This document shows positions 55,831 through 63,948 of a stretch of 64,000 bases of DNA, piece after piece. The DNA is from Antedon mediterranea (taxonomy: Eukaryota > Animalia > Echinodermata). Where the stretch lies: positions 11,318,948 through 11,382,947 of the forward strand of contig NC_092673.1 in assembly GCF_964355755.1 (NCBI RefSeq), given 5' to 3'. The position numbers and the translations under genes were made by a program. The notes under the pieces were generated by a model that was not told the DNA's origin, searched no databases, and was given only the letters and a program-made list of their open reading frames with translations. The first letter of the stretch is position 1. Each line of letters begins with the position of its first letter.

Positions 55831-58800
55831 CCATGGATATCTCGCGCATTTACAATTTTCGCACCCCCAGACAGCAACCTGCCTACGTCTCTGCGATTAT
55901 AGCGATATACCTCTTGGCCCGTGGGTAGGTTTTACGTTCGCGTATATTTTCTATGATAGGTATATTGAACTTTAAAAACTTCATTTTTAAATTTGAAAGA
56001 ATGGATTTACACAGTCATCGTACCGGACCTTTTGCAATGTGTTTTTCACACAGTATTTTATTTATGTACCATACAAAATTGAAAAAATTGGCTACCCTAA
56101 ATCTGATTAAAACGGCCTCAAATTACGCTATAACGTGTTGCTTCCGGGGACTCCCCCCCCCCCTGTACCCCCACCAGGGGCCCTTGGCGGCCCCCTGACC
56201 CCCAGCCAAGTGATGCTCACTTCACTCGCATTCCCCCCCCCCCCGTCGGGGAATTTAGCATATCCTCCCCCTCCCCGTCGGGGAATTTAGCATATCCCCC
56301 CCCCCCCTCGGGGAATTTAGCCCCCGCGTCGGAAAGATCCTGGCGCCACCCCTGCGCCAAGTGCGGATAACCAAAAATAAAATTATAAATTGCTACACTA
56401 TTCAGATCGATCCTTTCTGAATAGCTAATTAGAAAGCTAATTAGTTGGCCTTTATTCAAAGGAATGCTCTGGTAAAATTGCATCTGAATTTGTATTAATA
56501 ATTTTAAAAGTATTTTAAATAAATTATTTAAACATTAGTATGAATATTCAAAATCACAATTAAATATAAATCCCTGTTTTTAAAGTAACCAAATACTTCA
56601 AGAAAAGGCTTTATCTGTTTTGTCCCCCAAAAAAAAACATTTAAAAAATCAGAAAACATTGTTTTTCTCTTTTGTCATAATTAATAGAACGCACATTTAA
56701 GACGAGAAATGACCTGGTTTAATGTTGTTAAAGTTATATAGGACTATATGCATTATTTTTACAAAACATCAAAAATTACAGGTCTAGTGTCTTTTTTAAC
56801 AACATCGAGAAAAAAAGAGTACAGTAACTGCATAGAGAAACAAGTTATTTCTCCATAGTAACTGTGACCTACTGCGAACGTGCATATTCAGATCGACAGT
56901 GTGTTTTGCAAGTATGACGTCATGAGCTCAGACATGCATCATTAATGGTTATGTGATATGTACGTCGTCTATAGTTTCTGCCTTAACCTAATAGGAAAAA
57001 AATAATGCGTCCGAATGATGCAGGACTGACACATGGTCCCTGCTTGCTGGAGATGGTAACTTTCATACCGTTGAAATTGAAGTCCCTTAATAGTTATCCT
57101 CTTATTTACCTCCGCCAAGAAGCTATATGTAGTCGATCGTGTGTCTCAAATACTCAAATAATTATTGCACGATCTTTACCAAAATGAAAATATAGATAGA
57201 TATGTGGTGAAGGACCACTCCATTAAATTGGATCGGTCGGTTCTGGTCGGTAAACACTATCCTAACTTGAGCACCCGACTGCAGCCATGTATATGGCCTT
57301 GTTAGTACATTTTCAGACCTGCTAGTGTTAAAAGATAGAGAATTTTCAAAAGCCGGCGAGCAGTCTTAAAGTAACAAGTAAACTGAAATTGCATATTCTC
57401 GAGAACTACTTGTCCAAACAACTTCATTTTTGCACAAGAGGCAAGAGTTATAATTTTTGATTTGTAATTTTAAAACATAATTTGATCAGGGAGTTGTAAC
57501 GCTGATTTGATTTAACGCACAGGTTTTTTTATACGAGTAATTTTTAAAACCCTAGGCCTATTTCAATTCAAATTAACCCGTTACGTGGCGTTGTCGTTGC
57601 TGTTCTATTGTGAGTCAACTGAAACATTGTTAGTTGAAAGGCTGGTTACATAACCATTACACCAAATTCACATACACATGGTTGTAGTAAAATTGATTTT
57701 ATATTATTGTATTTAAACTTTTTAATTTATTTTAATGCAATTTGAAATTTTAAGGATTTTCTTGCGCAAATCATGTTCTCTAACAACATTAATTAATTAA
57801 CAAGAAAATAATGCATATGGTATACTCATTAGGCGAATGTATGTAATGCGTGATTTAAAATAGCGCAAAGATTTTCATTGCTCAATGGAATCTGCACAAC
57901 ATTGTTTAATTTGAAATTGCGCAAGGAAATCTTTGCGCAATTTTAATAACATTTTATTCTTTTACCTGTATTTTTTTGTAAATGCATACGGATTTATATG
58001 AGCTTTGGTTTTATCAAATACGGAAAATAACATGCGATGTTCCAAATTTTCTGCGCAATTTGAATATTGATTGAATTTGCGCAGAAAATCCTCCTCGCAT
58101 AACAGAAATAAATTTAATTAATTAAAATAATATGAAATCAAATAAACTCAGTTCATTATGTTTTGTACTATAGGAGACTTCCACATGCAGCCACCAAAAT
58201 GCGTTGTAATCATGTTCCTAACATTAAAAAATATATACATATATTCAAGGCATTCAGAATTTGAGATGCAAATGCATTGTGTGTAGGCCTATACCTACTG
58301 AGCCATTGGAAATCACATCAAAATGGTACATAATGTAGCCGAGGCTACCAACTATCTAAAAAAACGTTCGTCGTAGTTGTTTTCCAACTATACCAATACA
58401 TTTCTCGTGAGCAACGGAATCGTCGGAAGTTCGAAAGTCCGTAGTTTTAGGTGATGAAATACCTACACCGTTATCTATACACCCATCACCCCACTCCCAT
58501 ATTTAGACAGTATTCTGAACAGCTGATGACCCCTCTGTGTTATCTCCTTGTTGATAAACTGGACCATTAATATATAAATGACTAACCTCAGTGACCGATA
58601 CTGTGGTCTATAATTAGAAACCGTTATTTACATTGTTGCTATATCCAATATGTGTAACCAATAGCATTTCATCTAATTTTAGAGCTATAGGCCTACGATA
58701 TTTTATCTTGTTAAGTAAATTACTGTTAATCAATCGTGTGGTTATTTATATCGAACTGATCATCACGATACTCTATGCCAATACTATGTTTTTATAATTA

Positions 58801-59864
58801 CCCAAACGACGATTAAATGTGTATAGTTGGTTATAGGATGGATTTCTCCATGGTTCCAAGGCCTACTGCAGTTAATTTCTCGAAATCTAACGGCTACCAC
58901 TACCAATGACCGATTGATAGACCTAATGATACTCTTTGTTGTTCATATGGAAATACACTATAGAAAATACACATTTGAAACTGGAAGGCATGATAAAAAA
59001 AACAGCAATTGTATACTGTAAAAGAACATTTTAAATGAAAGTTATATACCTTATTTAGGCCTATAACAAATTTACCATTAACATTTTACCAAGTTTCCGT
59101 CAGACTGATCTTTCTAACAGCAGATTTTCATTTCATATTTAAAAGGTAAAGCTTAGTAGCCTACAGAAAATCAATCACATGACTAGAAAAATAACATATT
59201 TTTGTATTGGATAAAATATTAAGTAAATATTACAATAGTACTGTATGCTATAAAGAGAGAAAGATCATTCCAATCAAATTCCGAGTTCATTCAAGAGTAG
59301 CTCCATTTTTACAATGCCTATCTCTTCATTACAAAATATTAAAATTTAAGAAAAAAAAATAAAAATCTCATTTGAAGCAGGACGAGCGTTGTGATATGAG
59401 GTCATTACAAAAATGGCATACTACAGGACATGAATACACGAATTTACCGATTTCCAATGGCCTATCATTAACTGGGTAACTATTATGATTCTGATTATTT
59501 GATTTGATTATGTACAGCATTTATTATCTATTTTAATATTGTATTTCTTTTCTTGTTTTTGTGTGTGTTCTCTTCTGTAATAATGTTGTTATGCCTATAT
59601 CTACGCTATTACGATTGTAACGCAGAGTGCCAAGTGGAGTTATTTAAATGTTTTTTTTAAAAACGGTTAATATAGGCCTATTTCATAACACATAAGGTTC
59701 CCCAATAAAGTGATTTGACCTGGAGTGGTGTTCCAAAAGTATATGAATAAAAAGGGGACGACAGTGAAACCCACATTTTCATCAGAAATGTCCAACGGAA
59801 AGTGGCATTGAAACTCCACACGATCGACCATTTTCGGATAGGCGGAGTCCCGACAGCGAATAAA

Positions 59865-59920
59865 TAGCTGATTGGTCGAAGAATCCTAATTCGTCAATAA
59901 CGGACGCCGTTATATAGGGC
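59865..59920 (+). promoter_or_regulatory. Putative core promoter of the HMGR-like gene
   Basis: Inverted CCAAT box (CTGATTGG, about 59868) and TATATAG (about 59911), 160-210 bp upstream of the ATG, in a locally CpG-richer patch. Confidence 0.35.
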
Positions 59921-60078
59921 ATACAAACTTGAATAATAAACAAAACAATCTTATTTGAGGTAGAGCTTTGTAGGAACACGCTATATAAGTAACATTTTAG
60001 CTCTTCGATACCCATTCGGCAATTTACGGCAATAAATCAGCTTTGATAGTGTTGCGTTGTCACGTTTCTTCAAGCAGA

Positions 60079-60179
60079 ATGAGCTCAATCCGTTACAGCA
60101 CAAGACTGCTACAGAAAACCAAAGATGTGGTAAAGTGTCAATTCAAACGAGCTGTCAGTAACACTACTTCAAATACAAG
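60079..60179 (+). CDS. HMGR-like exon 1 (putative transit peptide)
   Basis: MSSIRYSTRLLQKTKDVVKCQFKRAVSNTTSNT(R); AG|GTATTA donor, phase 2; TATA- and CCAAT-like motifs upstream. Confidence 0.62.
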
Positions 60180-63100
60180 GTATTATAGGCCTAAAGTATG
60201 TCTATTTAATAAGTATAGAGTTTGTAAAAGTTGTTTGAAACGAATTGGGCAACAAAGTGGTTTTACTTCTAAAACAGATACTGTACTTCCAGTCACTGAT
60301 TTTTCAATCACATAAAATATTTATATTAGTTAAGCAATAAATAAATAAAATACCGTAAACGTTATTTTAGATAATGTATTTTTTATTAAAGGCAAATCAG
60401 GTACCGTATGGTCACGCTCACAGGGAATGATTTGCACGTTATCTATACCTTGTGTTTATTTATAGATATGTATATAGTTGGTCACTATAAGCTAAACAAT
60501 AATGTTATAAGTTGCCAAATCAATATGTTGCAGAATTTGCTTGTGGGTGTGTCTTACCGGTCCGGTTTTTGTTTTGTTTTTGATACCATGAAATATGAAA
60601 TTTGAAAAAAAATTCAATATGTTGAGAAGATCATATATACCAGATTTTTCATTTTTTTGACTCTTTGATAAACTTTATGAACTTCGACTTATTCGATATC
60701 CTTGTTAGAAATGGAGTTGCAACACAGAGTAGAACAAGGTCGACCCTAGTTCAAGAGAAAGGAACACAAACAAGGTAGGCCTCCGTCCGTAGCCACAAAC
60801 AAAATGTATAACCTAAAACTAATGCGTCTCGGGATATATTAATTTTTACCTCTGGTTTAATATGATAATGGATGAAACGTTATAATACATTTTTTTGGGA
60901 AACTGTATAGGGCCTATACCGTAAATCTTCTAATAGTAACCCACACTCTAATAGTAACCCCCCTTTCTATTAGTAACCACCTTATAAGTCAATCTATAAT
61001 AATAACCCACTACTATAATATAAACCCATAGGGGTTTGTTGAGCCGTGAATGTGTGCAAAAAGTCACATTTGTGCAACCACCAAACATGCACCCTCAAAT
61101 GTGCAAATTTGTAAAAATGTATAATCCAGTAATGTGCAAAAATCACGCCGTTAAATGTAAAAACGATTAGTTTTGACGTTAAAATGTGCAAATGTGTAAC
61201 ACGTGTTCGCTGCTTGCTGGAGATTTCCTTTAAAATACAGACAACTTTTTTATATTATTTATTTAAAATGTATTTCTGTTATGCGCAGTTTATGTAATTT
61301 TTAATTGTGAGGATTTTCTTACGCAAATCATTTTCTTTAACAAAATTAATTAACAGGAAAATAATGTAGATGAAGTAGGTATATGAATATGGTATAATCC
61401 TTAAACGAATGTAAATGTTATGCATGATTTAAAATAGCTCAAAGATTTCGTTGCGCATTTGAATTTGCGCAAGAAATATTTGCGCAATTTTATTCTTTTA
61501 CCTGCATTTTTTATAAATGTATACATATTTTAATGAGCTTTGGTTTTATCAAATGCTGAAAATACCATGCGCAATTTGAATAGTGCTCAAGAAAATCGTC
61601 AATGAATTTCAAATTGCATAAATTTCAATTATCGCTCATAACAGAAATACATTAATAAAATAATATAAAATCTAATGAACTCAATTATGTTTTGTAAATT
61701 TCGTTTAAAATAAGAGAACAACTACAAGGGACTTAAATTTCAACGGTATGGAAGTTATCATTTCCAGAGAAGCAGCGACCACGGACATTCTCGGACATAT
61801 TCGGACATTCGGATTGTGTTTTTTCTTTCTTCAAAAACAGATTATTTCAGCCTGTACTACAATATATGTAATGCCATATCTTGAAAACATTGTTAGAATT
61901 AGGTTATAATTTTTAATAAACGATTTTGTTTGAGAAAAAATGATTTGCAAATTTGTAGAATTTCATTTGCACATTTTTAGACATTTGCACATTCAACGTC
62001 AAAACTAATCGTTTTTACATTTAACGGCGGGATATATGCACATTAGTGGATTATACATTTTTACAGATTTGCACATTTGAGGGTGCCATGTTTGCACAAA
62101 TGTGGTTGTTTGCACAAATGTGACTTTTTGCACATTTCACGGCTCAACAGGGTTACTATTAGAGTCACAAAAACTATTGACAAAATGATTGGCTGTTTAT
62201 GATGCAGCCGTATTTTGAAAATAAGGAGATAATTTGCATGTTTATCTCGGGGAGTGGGTGAAGATTGAATGTTTTTGAGTTTATAAAATATAGTTTGTTT
62301 ATTTGTACTGTTTTATTAGTTTTACTATGAGTACCGTAAGTAATGTATTTTACTCTATAGGGATTCAACTCAAGGAAGTCGGAAGGATGAAGGGTTTCGT
62401 ATATTGCATGAACATAAACGCACATCAACATCTCTCAATGAGCTTGTAGATAACTACGGTCCTGAAGTATATGAAAAGAATTGTGAAAACTTCATCGGTA
62501 CTGTCAAAATACCTACAGGAGTGGTATCTATCAAAGTCAACGGAAAACACGCAAATGGCACGTATACTGTTCCCATGGCAACGACAGAAGGGGCACTAGT
62601 GGCATCATACAATAGAGGCACTAAAGTTATCAATGAAGCAGGTGGAATCAATGCTGCTTTTATTCGTCAAAGAATTGTCAGAGCACCATTATATGAATTT
62701 AACAGTGTTGATGATGCATCAAAGTTCCAGGAATTTTACAGCCAGTCAGACACGTTTAAGCGAATGAAAGAAATAGCAGAGAAGACAACACGTCATGGTA
62801 AACTGCACAAAACAACCTGTCATGTCCACGGAAGTACGGTACACACACGAATGAGTTACTCAAGTGGAGATGCATCTGGACAAAACATCGTAACGTTTGC
62901 TACAGAACCTGTCTGTAAATGGATACAGAAGAACTCTCCAATTACTCCGACGGCTTGGTACATCGACAGTGGATTTTCCTTGGACAAGCGAGCTGGTTCG
63001 GCCAACGTAATAGACGGTCGTGGATCATATGTCACTGGGGAGGTAGTGATTCCAAGAGAGCTAATTGAGAAGAGGATGCATACATCTGGTAAGACAATGC

Positions 63101-63948
63101 ACGACGAAAGTATATTGTATAGTCCAAGGAAACGAGTTGTGTCATCATGACGATAGAGGATCTCTTTCAGTTTTTACATGGAAAACATTTTTTTTTAAAG
63201 AAATTAATAAGTTACAGTAATTCAGTCTTGTTATTGTCATGTTTAATTTTGAGTAATATGAATTAAACAATTTTAATATTATAGTTTTTTCTTACAGTGG
63301 AAATCATTCAGGATTTGAATTGGCATCAAATTGACAATATATTCGCCGGATCACAAGGTAATTGTTTTAACATAACTCTAATATTTTACCATAGATGACC
63401 CTTAATCTTATGTCAACGAAAATCATTTGTCCTTTTTTTATTTTACAGCTTTAAATTGTCAAGCATCTAACGCTCTAGCAGCCATTTTCATTGCTACTGG
63501 ACAGGATCCAGCATGCGTTGCCGAATCACACCAAGCATATACACAATACAAGAAAACAATTGATGGTGATCTAAAAATGGTCTGTACACTACCATCACTT
63601 ATGATCGGTACCATTGGAGGTGGAACTTCCCTACCTAGTCAGAAGGTAACATTTTATATACAGTATATTATATTGTTTGTAGTATTGAAAAACGGTGCTT
63701 GTGACTCTCAGAAATAGACAAATAATGATTATTGTTATTAATCATTACAAATTTCATCTACTTCATTCCTTTTCCAGACATGTTTAGAAATAATAGGCAC
63801 TCATGGAATCGGAACGATGCCAGCATTTGCCGAAGTGATATTGGGTGTTGTCATGGGAGGAGAACTATCATTGATTTCAGCAATGGGCGCTCAACATTTT
63901 GCTTATGCTCACAAGAAGCATGCTCGTGGACCTAAGACGGTTGCGTAA
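60079..63948 (+). CDS. Soluble class I HMG-CoA reductase-like protein, bacterial-type motifs, putative N-terminal mitochondrial presequence; join(60079..60179,60709..60774,62361..63088,63298..63357,63449..63645,63778..63948), 440 aa
   Basis: Exon lengths 101+66+728+60+197+171 = 1323 nt give an open frame with GT-AG introns. Motifs: CENFIG, PMATTEGALVASYNRG, GDASGQN, DKR, ATGQDPA, GTIGGGT, GELS, AHKKHAR. No transmembrane region. Exons 1-2 rest on splice signals and phase only. Confidence 0.85.
60709..60774 (+). CDS. HMGR-like exon 2
   Basis: Acceptor cttgttag; NGVATQSRTRSTLVQEKGTQT; AG|GTAGGC donor; symmetric phase 2-2 exon. Confidence 0.58.
61037..62149. mobile_element. TGT..ACA foldback MITE with long TIRs in HMGR-like intron 2
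   Basis: Imperfect TIRs of about 150 bp starting TGTTGAGCCGTGAA, 5-bp TSD GGGTT; related pieces at 41288..41750 and 57720..58170. Confidence 0.8.
62361..63088 (+). CDS. HMGR-like exon 3 (N-terminal part of catalytic domain)
   Basis: Acceptor tactctatag, in frame with ORF 62404; ENFIG, ATTEG, GDASGQN and DKR motifs; donor GTAAGA at 63089. Confidence 0.92.
63298..63357 (+). CDS. HMGR-like exon 4
   Basis: Acceptor tttcttacag; VEIIQDLNWHQIDNIFAGSQ; donor GTAATT; phase 1-1. Confidence 0.85.
63449..63645 (+). CDS. HMGR-like exon 5
   Basis: ALNCQASNALAAIFIATGQDPACVAES...LPSLMIGTIGGGTSLPSQK; donor GTAACA. Confidence 0.92.
63778..63948 (+). CDS. HMGR-like exon 6 (last coding exon)
   Basis: Acceptor tttccag; TCLEIIG...GGELSLISAMGAQHFAYAHKKHARGPKTVA then TAA; contains the His at the catalytic position. 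Confidence 0.9.
   Translation, partial: TCLEIIGTHGIGTMPAFAEVILGVVMGGELSLISAMGAQHFAYAHKKHARGPKTVA

Follow-up and report, generated by a model that had tools for sequence, protein, structure and literature searches.

An HMG-CoA reductase-fold gene of the crinoid Antedon mediterranea with a presequence-like leader and an FcrA-like substrate pocket

A gene near the 3' end of the window (the whole stretch of 64,000 nucleotides of Antedon mediterranea DNA that was analysed) combines the fold of HMG-CoA reductase (HMGR) with a basic N-terminal leader, raising the question of what its enzyme reduces and in which compartment. The initial annotation had read it as a sterol-insensitive mitochondrial reductase that could divert leucine carbon to mevalonate. 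The gene (PF00368, + strand) was resolved into six exons with 441 codons and GT-AG borders at all five introns, and exons 1 and 2 join exon 3 in frame (phase 2, phase 2). Exons 3, 5 and 6 match Pfam HMG-CoA_red, and the class I HMGR model matches far better than the class II model. The features are given below, with equivalent residues numbered as in human HMGCR and checked on 1DQ8.

59841..59987, + strand: promoter candidates, pattern matches only and without a chance control
60079..60179, + strand: exon 1, residues 1-34, a basic amphipathic, presequence-like helix
60709..60774, + strand: exon 2, residues 34-56, a linker rich in Ser, Thr and Arg, predicted to be disordered
60916..62233, no strand assigned: nested inverted-repeat elements, high-copy, most of intron 2, with depth spikes and skipped-form joints
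62361..63088, + strand: exon 3, the larger part of the class I HMGR-fold core, with E132 (=Glu559), R163 (=Arg590), R200 (=Arg627) and D264/K265 (=Asp690/Lys691)
62965-62967, + strand: D258 in exon 3, which stands for Ser684
63298..63357, + strand: exon 4, the helix that bears Lys735 in true HMGRs, here with no Lys or Arg
63449..63645, + strand: exon 5, with Q323 (for His752), N326 (=Asn755) and the catalytic D338 (=Asp767)
63778..63948, + strand: exon 6 up to the stop, with F425 (for Leu862), the catalytic H429 (=His866), R434 (=Arg871) and G435 where the Ser872 phosphorylation site would be

Over exon 3, the translation is identical to the Antedon mediterranea RefSeq model XP_071948691.1 (P0001), which skips exon 4 and is spliced into exon 5 at a position lacking AG. 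Exon 4 is conserved in the Anneissia japonica orthologue P0002 (78% identity over exon 3, 71% over exon 2), and the six-exon model was therefore preferred. Both proteins share the start Met, and tblastn of P0002 matches both small exons. An AG at 60076-60077, directly 5' of the ATG, could act as splice acceptor for an upstream exon. Promoter-like words comprise a GC-box-like word at 59841, an inverted CCAAT at 59871 and TATA-like words at 59911 and 59982; a bacterial promoter scan, irrelevant to this gene, gave matches at chance level. The exon missing from the RefSeq model would speak for a contaminant or a dead gene. We regard this as extremely improbable, since the gene has five GT-AG introns and an intact frame, its close orthologue comes from another crinoid family, depth is even over the gene and its flanks (contigs of three DNA-like runs of one sample, which may be the assembly's own), and it comes after a spliced tgt/QTRT1 gene (queuine tRNA-ribosyltransferase; window 7758-50570, ~43 kb).

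The introns of tgt/QTRT1 hold reverse-transcriptase-like and transposon-like fragments. The inner repeat element of intron 2 spans about 61031-62150 and has arms of 95 nt that are 94% complementary, and related repeats also occur upstream at about 56750-58050.

No transmembrane segment was found in the 441-residue protein. The leader has no hydrophobic segment either: within residues 1-80, the Kyte-Doolittle average of 19-residue stretches peaks at -0.44. When the N-terminal 420 residues of six animal HMGCRs were searched against the whole window by tblastn, no match among those listed was better than E 0.26, against 5e-32 for the catalytic part in the same search. The earlier observation of a leader without a membrane anchor, and without sterol-sensing-domain exons ahead of it, holds, and a soluble enzyme that lacks a sterol-sensing domain is supported.

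The relatives of the protein were identified by sequence searches. Over exon 3, its closest non-crinoid matches are prokaryote-type proteins with 39-49% identity (118 listed, all named ones bacterial), and an archaeal HMGR scores 157 bits versus 92 bits for the human enzyme. A search of 1.84 billion representatives placed the crinoid paralogues P0246 and P0247 on top, with crinoid P0250, the EukProt protein P0249 (inferred to be from Corallochytrium, 'Clim' label) and proteins fused to an acyl-CoA-binding domain (ACBP) next behind; no further named animal member was found in the 150 rows, of which 20 had names, most rows being without one. With an octopus HMGCR as query, canonical membrane-anchored HMGCR was recovered from sea urchins and hemichordates, and no crinoid protein was present among the best 120 of 460 matches (7992 candidates scored), which does not show that crinoids have lost the canonical enzyme.

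Phylogenetic trees, all of them quick and with SH-aLRT supports, united the crinoid proteins, P0304 included, in one clade (SH-aLRT 100) amid bacterial and likely protist proteins. Canonical enzymes were split from all others (SH-aLRT 99), and the crinoid proteins share the non-canonical side with Trp862-type and with carrier-fused proteins, in a tree without published FcrA references or class II outgroup. A grouping of crinoid proteins with animal HMGCR was rejected (p-AU 3.2e-7), as was one with all canonical eukaryotic HMGR (p-AU 6e-6), both with 46 of 68 rows. The comparison with animal HMGCR drawn in the initial annotation is therefore not supported. The same rejection speaks against descent from an animal HMGCR by loss of the membrane anchor, since the lineage of this protein never possessed such an anchor. 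A clade of crinoid and likely protist proteins was recovered in three trees (SH-aLRT 95, 94 and 91) and was absent from two others, and a grouping of crinoid proteins with core bacteria that leaves out the likely protist proteins was not rejected (p-AU 0.43). Two gammaproteobacterial proteins with similar motifs (L014, L015) were considered as sister group and rejected by the tree. The gene may have come by direct bacterial transfer, by transfer via a protist, or by ancient inheritance with many losses; we favour lateral gain, since no other named animal turned up.

Crinoids have at least three paralogue lineages, diverged to 40-51% identity. In P0304, a relative of P0247, homology ends where intron 3 of the window gene begins (63088), which suggests an intron position common to the paralogues. 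P0250 and its isoforms P0384 and P0385 (Anneissia XP_033108484-6) have lost the equivalents of Lys691, His866, Arg590 and Asn755, start with a Lys-rich segment, end in an acidic tail and are alternatively spliced at the pocket helix; P0250 is likely a pseudoenzyme.

The active site retains the catalytic tetrad (E132, K265, D338 and H429), together with Arg590, Asp690, Asn755, Arg627 and Arg871. The canonical HMG pocket, formed by Ser684, Lys735, His752 and Leu862, is altered throughout: Asp, Gln and Phe stand at 684, 752 and 862, and Lys735 has no counterpart. Asn686 is changed to Gly and Lys692 to Arg, and two residues are deleted in the 735 helix; the residue equivalent to Lys735 is ambiguous because of this gap relative to the human enzyme, and the exon-4 peptide contains no Lys or Arg at all. 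The pocket was compared with 117 of the 118 listed relatives (one short sequence was dropped) and with 35 canonical controls, 13 of them animal and 22 chosen by a DAMGMN motif. An acid occupies position 684 in all crinoid proteins (5/5) and relatives (117/117), versus Ser or Thr in every control (35/35). Lys735 is found in 35/35 controls and in none of the five crinoid proteins, and Met, Val, Leu or Ile takes its place in 108 of the 117 relatives. Position 862 is aromatic in the crinoid proteins (5/5), Phe in the relatives (117/117) and Leu in the controls (34/35). A Streptomyces HMGR encoded in a complete mevalonate operon keeps the Ser684, Lys735 and Leu862 state of the controls. According to PMC9500038, Lys735 forms a salt bridge with the carboxylate of the HMG moiety.

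The pattern found here resembles that of FcrA, an HMGR-derived fatty acyl-CoA reductase of which one member, Pb-FcrA, has been assayed (Grossi et al. 2025, PMC11948995). As described in the main text of that paper, the assayed enzyme converts acyl-CoA of C14 and longer to alcohol with NADPH, requires at least C14 in vitro, shows no reduction of HMG-CoA and is resistant to simvastatin. FcrA is diagnosed there by a tetrad that is kept, replacement of Ser684 by an acid, a missing HMG-binding Lys (Lys735, which appears there as 795) and a bulky residue instead of Leu862. All of these are present in the crinoid protein, in the form of the tetrad, D258, the lost Lys735 and F425. The main text of PMC11948995 contains none of the terms crinoid, echinoderm, metazoa, mitochond and peroxisom, and the eukaryotic FcrA of its figure or supplement could include an animal one; literature searches, of which the term FcrA was not part, returned nothing on a crinoid HMGR-like gene.

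Bacterial kin were examined for the isoprenoid pathway that accompanies the gene. Among 250 gammaproteobacteria, 35 genomes matched and 25 with loci were tested, these genomes being related to one another and maybe incomplete: the 10 best matches had DXR in 10/10 and mevalonate-diphosphate decarboxylase in 0/10, and the other 15 had DXR in 0/15 and the decarboxylase in 15/15. None of the nine genes typed in the first group carries Lys735, and their residue 684 is Glu in five, Ser in three and Ala in one; all 14 genes typed in the second group carry Lys735. Four further genomes contained DXR, and neither mevalonate kinase nor HMG-CoA synthase exceeded the cut-off in them.

These data bear on the proposal that the gene encodes a true HMG-CoA reductase of mitochondria, insensitive to sterols, that would channel carbon from leucine to mevalonate on the trypanosomatid model. 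Such an enzyme would account for the kept tetrad and CoA/NADPH contacts, it has the trypanosomatid precedent (PMC5993337), and no canonical crinoid HMGCR appeared among the octopus matches considered. However, the residue that would hold the HMG carboxylate is gone and Ser684 is replaced by an acid, both being kept by the Streptomyces enzyme of the mevalonate operon, and the bacterial kin do without a mevalonate pathway. The leucine-to-mevalonate role is unlikely because the assayed FcrA, whose altered pocket the crinoid protein shares, does not reduce HMG-CoA (main text of PMC11948995), and we consider a true HMG-CoA reductase very improbable. By analogy with FcrA, the substrate would very probably be something other than HMG-CoA.

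That the substrate is a fatty acyl-CoA seems reasonably probable to us, again by analogy. Among the relatives are fusions with acyl-CoA-binding, AMP-binding and carrier domains. Likely protist FcrA-type proteins include P0262, P0263, P0332, P0249, P0251 and P0256, two of which are fused to an acyl-CoA-binding domain; the change of Asn686 to Gly is common to these six and most crinoid proteins. PTS1-like ends of the peroxisomal type (AKL, AKL and SKL), present in three of the six, occur in 3 of 341 proteins scanned, all likely protist proteins of a single subclade. The domain fusions and PTS1-like ends would fit acyl-CoA chemistry. A mitochondrial reductase or dehydrogenase of the HMGR fold acting on short or unusual acyl-CoA rather than long-chain fatty acyl-CoA has also to be weighed; examples would be a branched or 3-hydroxy acyl-CoA that arises in matrix catabolism, or a precursor of secondary metabolites. 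According to the main text of PMC11948995, 59 FcrA were modelled, and 12 of them, mostly from eukaryotes, accommodate only molecules smaller than C14. Residues 752 and 686 have changed in a protein that retains Arg590 and Asp690; together with the change at 692 and the deletion, they could reflect a different substrate, and the divergence among the paralogues suggests several substrates. Against this stand the chain-length requirement of the sole assayed member (main text of PMC11948995) and the ACBP fusions of likely protist kin, and we judge a short or unusual substrate improbable.

The immediate neighbours of bacterial relatives point to no single pathway, those in L001, L002, L005 and L007 being unrelated genes. 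In a Weeksellaceae locus (L003:4896-10014), an FcrA-type gene is followed by UbiA-family and PPDK-like genes, and a PPDK-like gene is also present in L004. On a Sinorhizobium plasmid (L010:3516-9694), an HMGR-like gene with a degenerate cis-loop has genes for acyl-CoA carboxylase subunits on one side and one of the PrpD family on the other; it is another repurposed HMGR fold.

The location of the enzyme was addressed through its leader. Mitochondrial presequences form a net positive, acid-poor, amphipathic N-terminal helix, and the leader has this composition. As noted in the initial annotation, residues 1-55 are rich in basic residues (11; six Arg, five Lys) and in Ser and Thr (17; seven and ten), and D16 and E50 are the only acids. 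For comparison, 115 of the 118 listed prokaryote-type relatives were used, three without a start or anchor being dropped. The net charge of +6 over the first 30 residues was reached by none of them (median 0), nor was the number of Ser and Thr in 55 residues, and the hydrophobic moment was reached by two. When charge, acids and moment were combined by hand-made rules, chosen after the sequence was seen, both orthologues were positive and all 109 prokaryote-type N-termini were negative. The anchor of this comparison lies at position 97, versus a median of 83, with 10/115 relatives equally long; since the N-terminal part is just ~14 residues longer than that of the relatives, the leader appears to be a remodelled or replaced N-terminus and not an addition to the bacterial one. 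The AlphaFold model of P0002 has a low-confidence helix at residues 4-25, disorder at residues 24-53 (pLDDT <50) and a confident core.

In both orthologues, Arg24 lies three residues before Ser or Thr, a pattern also seen in 8/109 bacterial N-termini; we take R24-A-V|S27 to be a candidate R-3 cleavage site. Acid-poor amphipathic starts are found in four of the five named crinoid proteins, and the paralogues P0246, P0247 and P0304 (counted from Met84) have acid-poor starts too; most paralogue lineages have presequence-like leaders. The resemblance to a presequence thus stands, with a composition conserved in the orthologue and recurring in paralogues, although the enzyme that carries it is not HMGCR. 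On balance, we expect import into mitochondria with a cut near residue 26, somewhat more probably than not to occur.

The chief alternative for the location is an FcrA-type acyl-CoA reductase that is cytosolic or membrane-associated, in which the basic N-terminus would be what remains of a diverged older one, or a helix that binds lipid. Its N-terminal length is about that of the bacterial proteins, and the start of the paralogue P0250 is Lys-rich and not presequence-like. Residues 5-58 of P0002 weakly resemble the bacterial N-terminal profile (4/200 shuffles reach the score), and the leader may therefore be partly inherited from a bacterial N-terminus. To our knowledge, none of the known animal fatty acyl-CoA reductases is a matrix enzyme. 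On the other hand, P0001 has no such similarity to the bacterial profile (78/200 shuffles as high), a VV.CQ..R motif precedes the R-3-like site in both P0001 and P0247 (18/2000 shuffles reach the score), and the named crinoid proteins mostly start with acid-poor, amphipathic segments. We therefore consider a cytosolic or membrane-associated enzyme unlikely, though less so than the other alternatives. No PTS1 was found at the C-terminus of the crinoid protein.

Our preferred explanation, to which we give about an even chance, is that the gene codes for a soluble member of the FcrA branch with the HMGR fold, which would use NADPH to reduce an acyl-CoA with an uncharged end, probably a fatty one, to the alcohol, and would be directed by a mitochondrial leader. 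The nuclear transcript would be spliced and the leader then read by the mitochondrial import machinery. The soluble oligomer would bind NADPH and an acyl-CoA without terminal carboxylate, and the thioester would be reduced by four electrons (two hydride transfers, CoA released) via the HMGR catalytic residues. The alcohol might go into wax esters, ether lipids or secondary metabolites. Control by sterols or through the Ser872 site would be absent. A lateral acquisition by a crinoid ancestor would have been followed by gain of introns, gain of the leader and duplication. We tentatively propose, as a possibility that falls short of even, that, of the animals sampled, only crinoids acquired FcrA by lateral transfer, from a bacterium or by way of a protist, equipped it with introns and a presequence, expanded it to a family and use it to make fatty alcohols in the matrix, with an enzyme unrelated to the usual animal FAR.

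The fold is ordinary; the host and the predicted compartment are new, and we know of no animal precedent for the reduction of acyl-CoA to alcohols in the mitochondrial matrix. If the proposal is true, the crinoid genes, now annotated as HMG-CoA reductase or uncharacterised, represent animals in an enzyme family first characterised in 2025, and a foreign metabolic gene was domesticated with organelle targeting in one echinoderm class. It would also provide a testable starting point for work on the lipids or secondary metabolites of crinoids, and such genes should not be counted as an expansion of the mevalonate pathway.

Among known systems, animal HMGCR shares the fold (Foldseek E 3.5e-35 to 1dqa, rmsd 1.7 A) and the catalytic residues with the crinoid protein. 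The latter is only ~33-36% identical to the sea urchin (P0494/P0504), hemichordate (P0446/P0449) and human (1DQ8) enzymes and falls in a separate clade; unlike them, it has no sterol-sensing domain, no Ser872 site and an altered HMG pocket. By description, its predicted overall reaction is that of animal FAR1/FAR2, which convert acyl-CoA and 2 NADPH to alcohol, have an unrelated fold and are membrane-anchored and peroxisomal. The trypanosomatid HMGR is soluble, as is the crinoid protein, and is located in the matrix in trypanosomes according to PMC5993337, a location that is predicted only for the crinoid protein. The trypanosomatid enzyme is by description a true HMG-CoA reductase, so that the analogy drawn in the initial annotation holds for the predicted location and not for the predicted chemistry. 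The closest likeness is to FcrA as described in the main text of PMC11948995, with which the crinoid protein shares the class I HMGR fold, the catalytic Glu, Lys, Asp and His, a position outside the canonical HMGR clade in the trees made here and kin in genomes without a mevalonate pathway. The crinoid proteins form a subclade separate from the Trp862 type, the likely kin of Pb-FcrA, and the FcrA substrate is therefore carried over by analogy. In contrast to FcrA, the crinoid gene has an animal host and five spliceosomal introns, its product has His752 changed to Gln and Asn686 to Gly, and a presequence-like leader stands where FcrA has its Lad domain.
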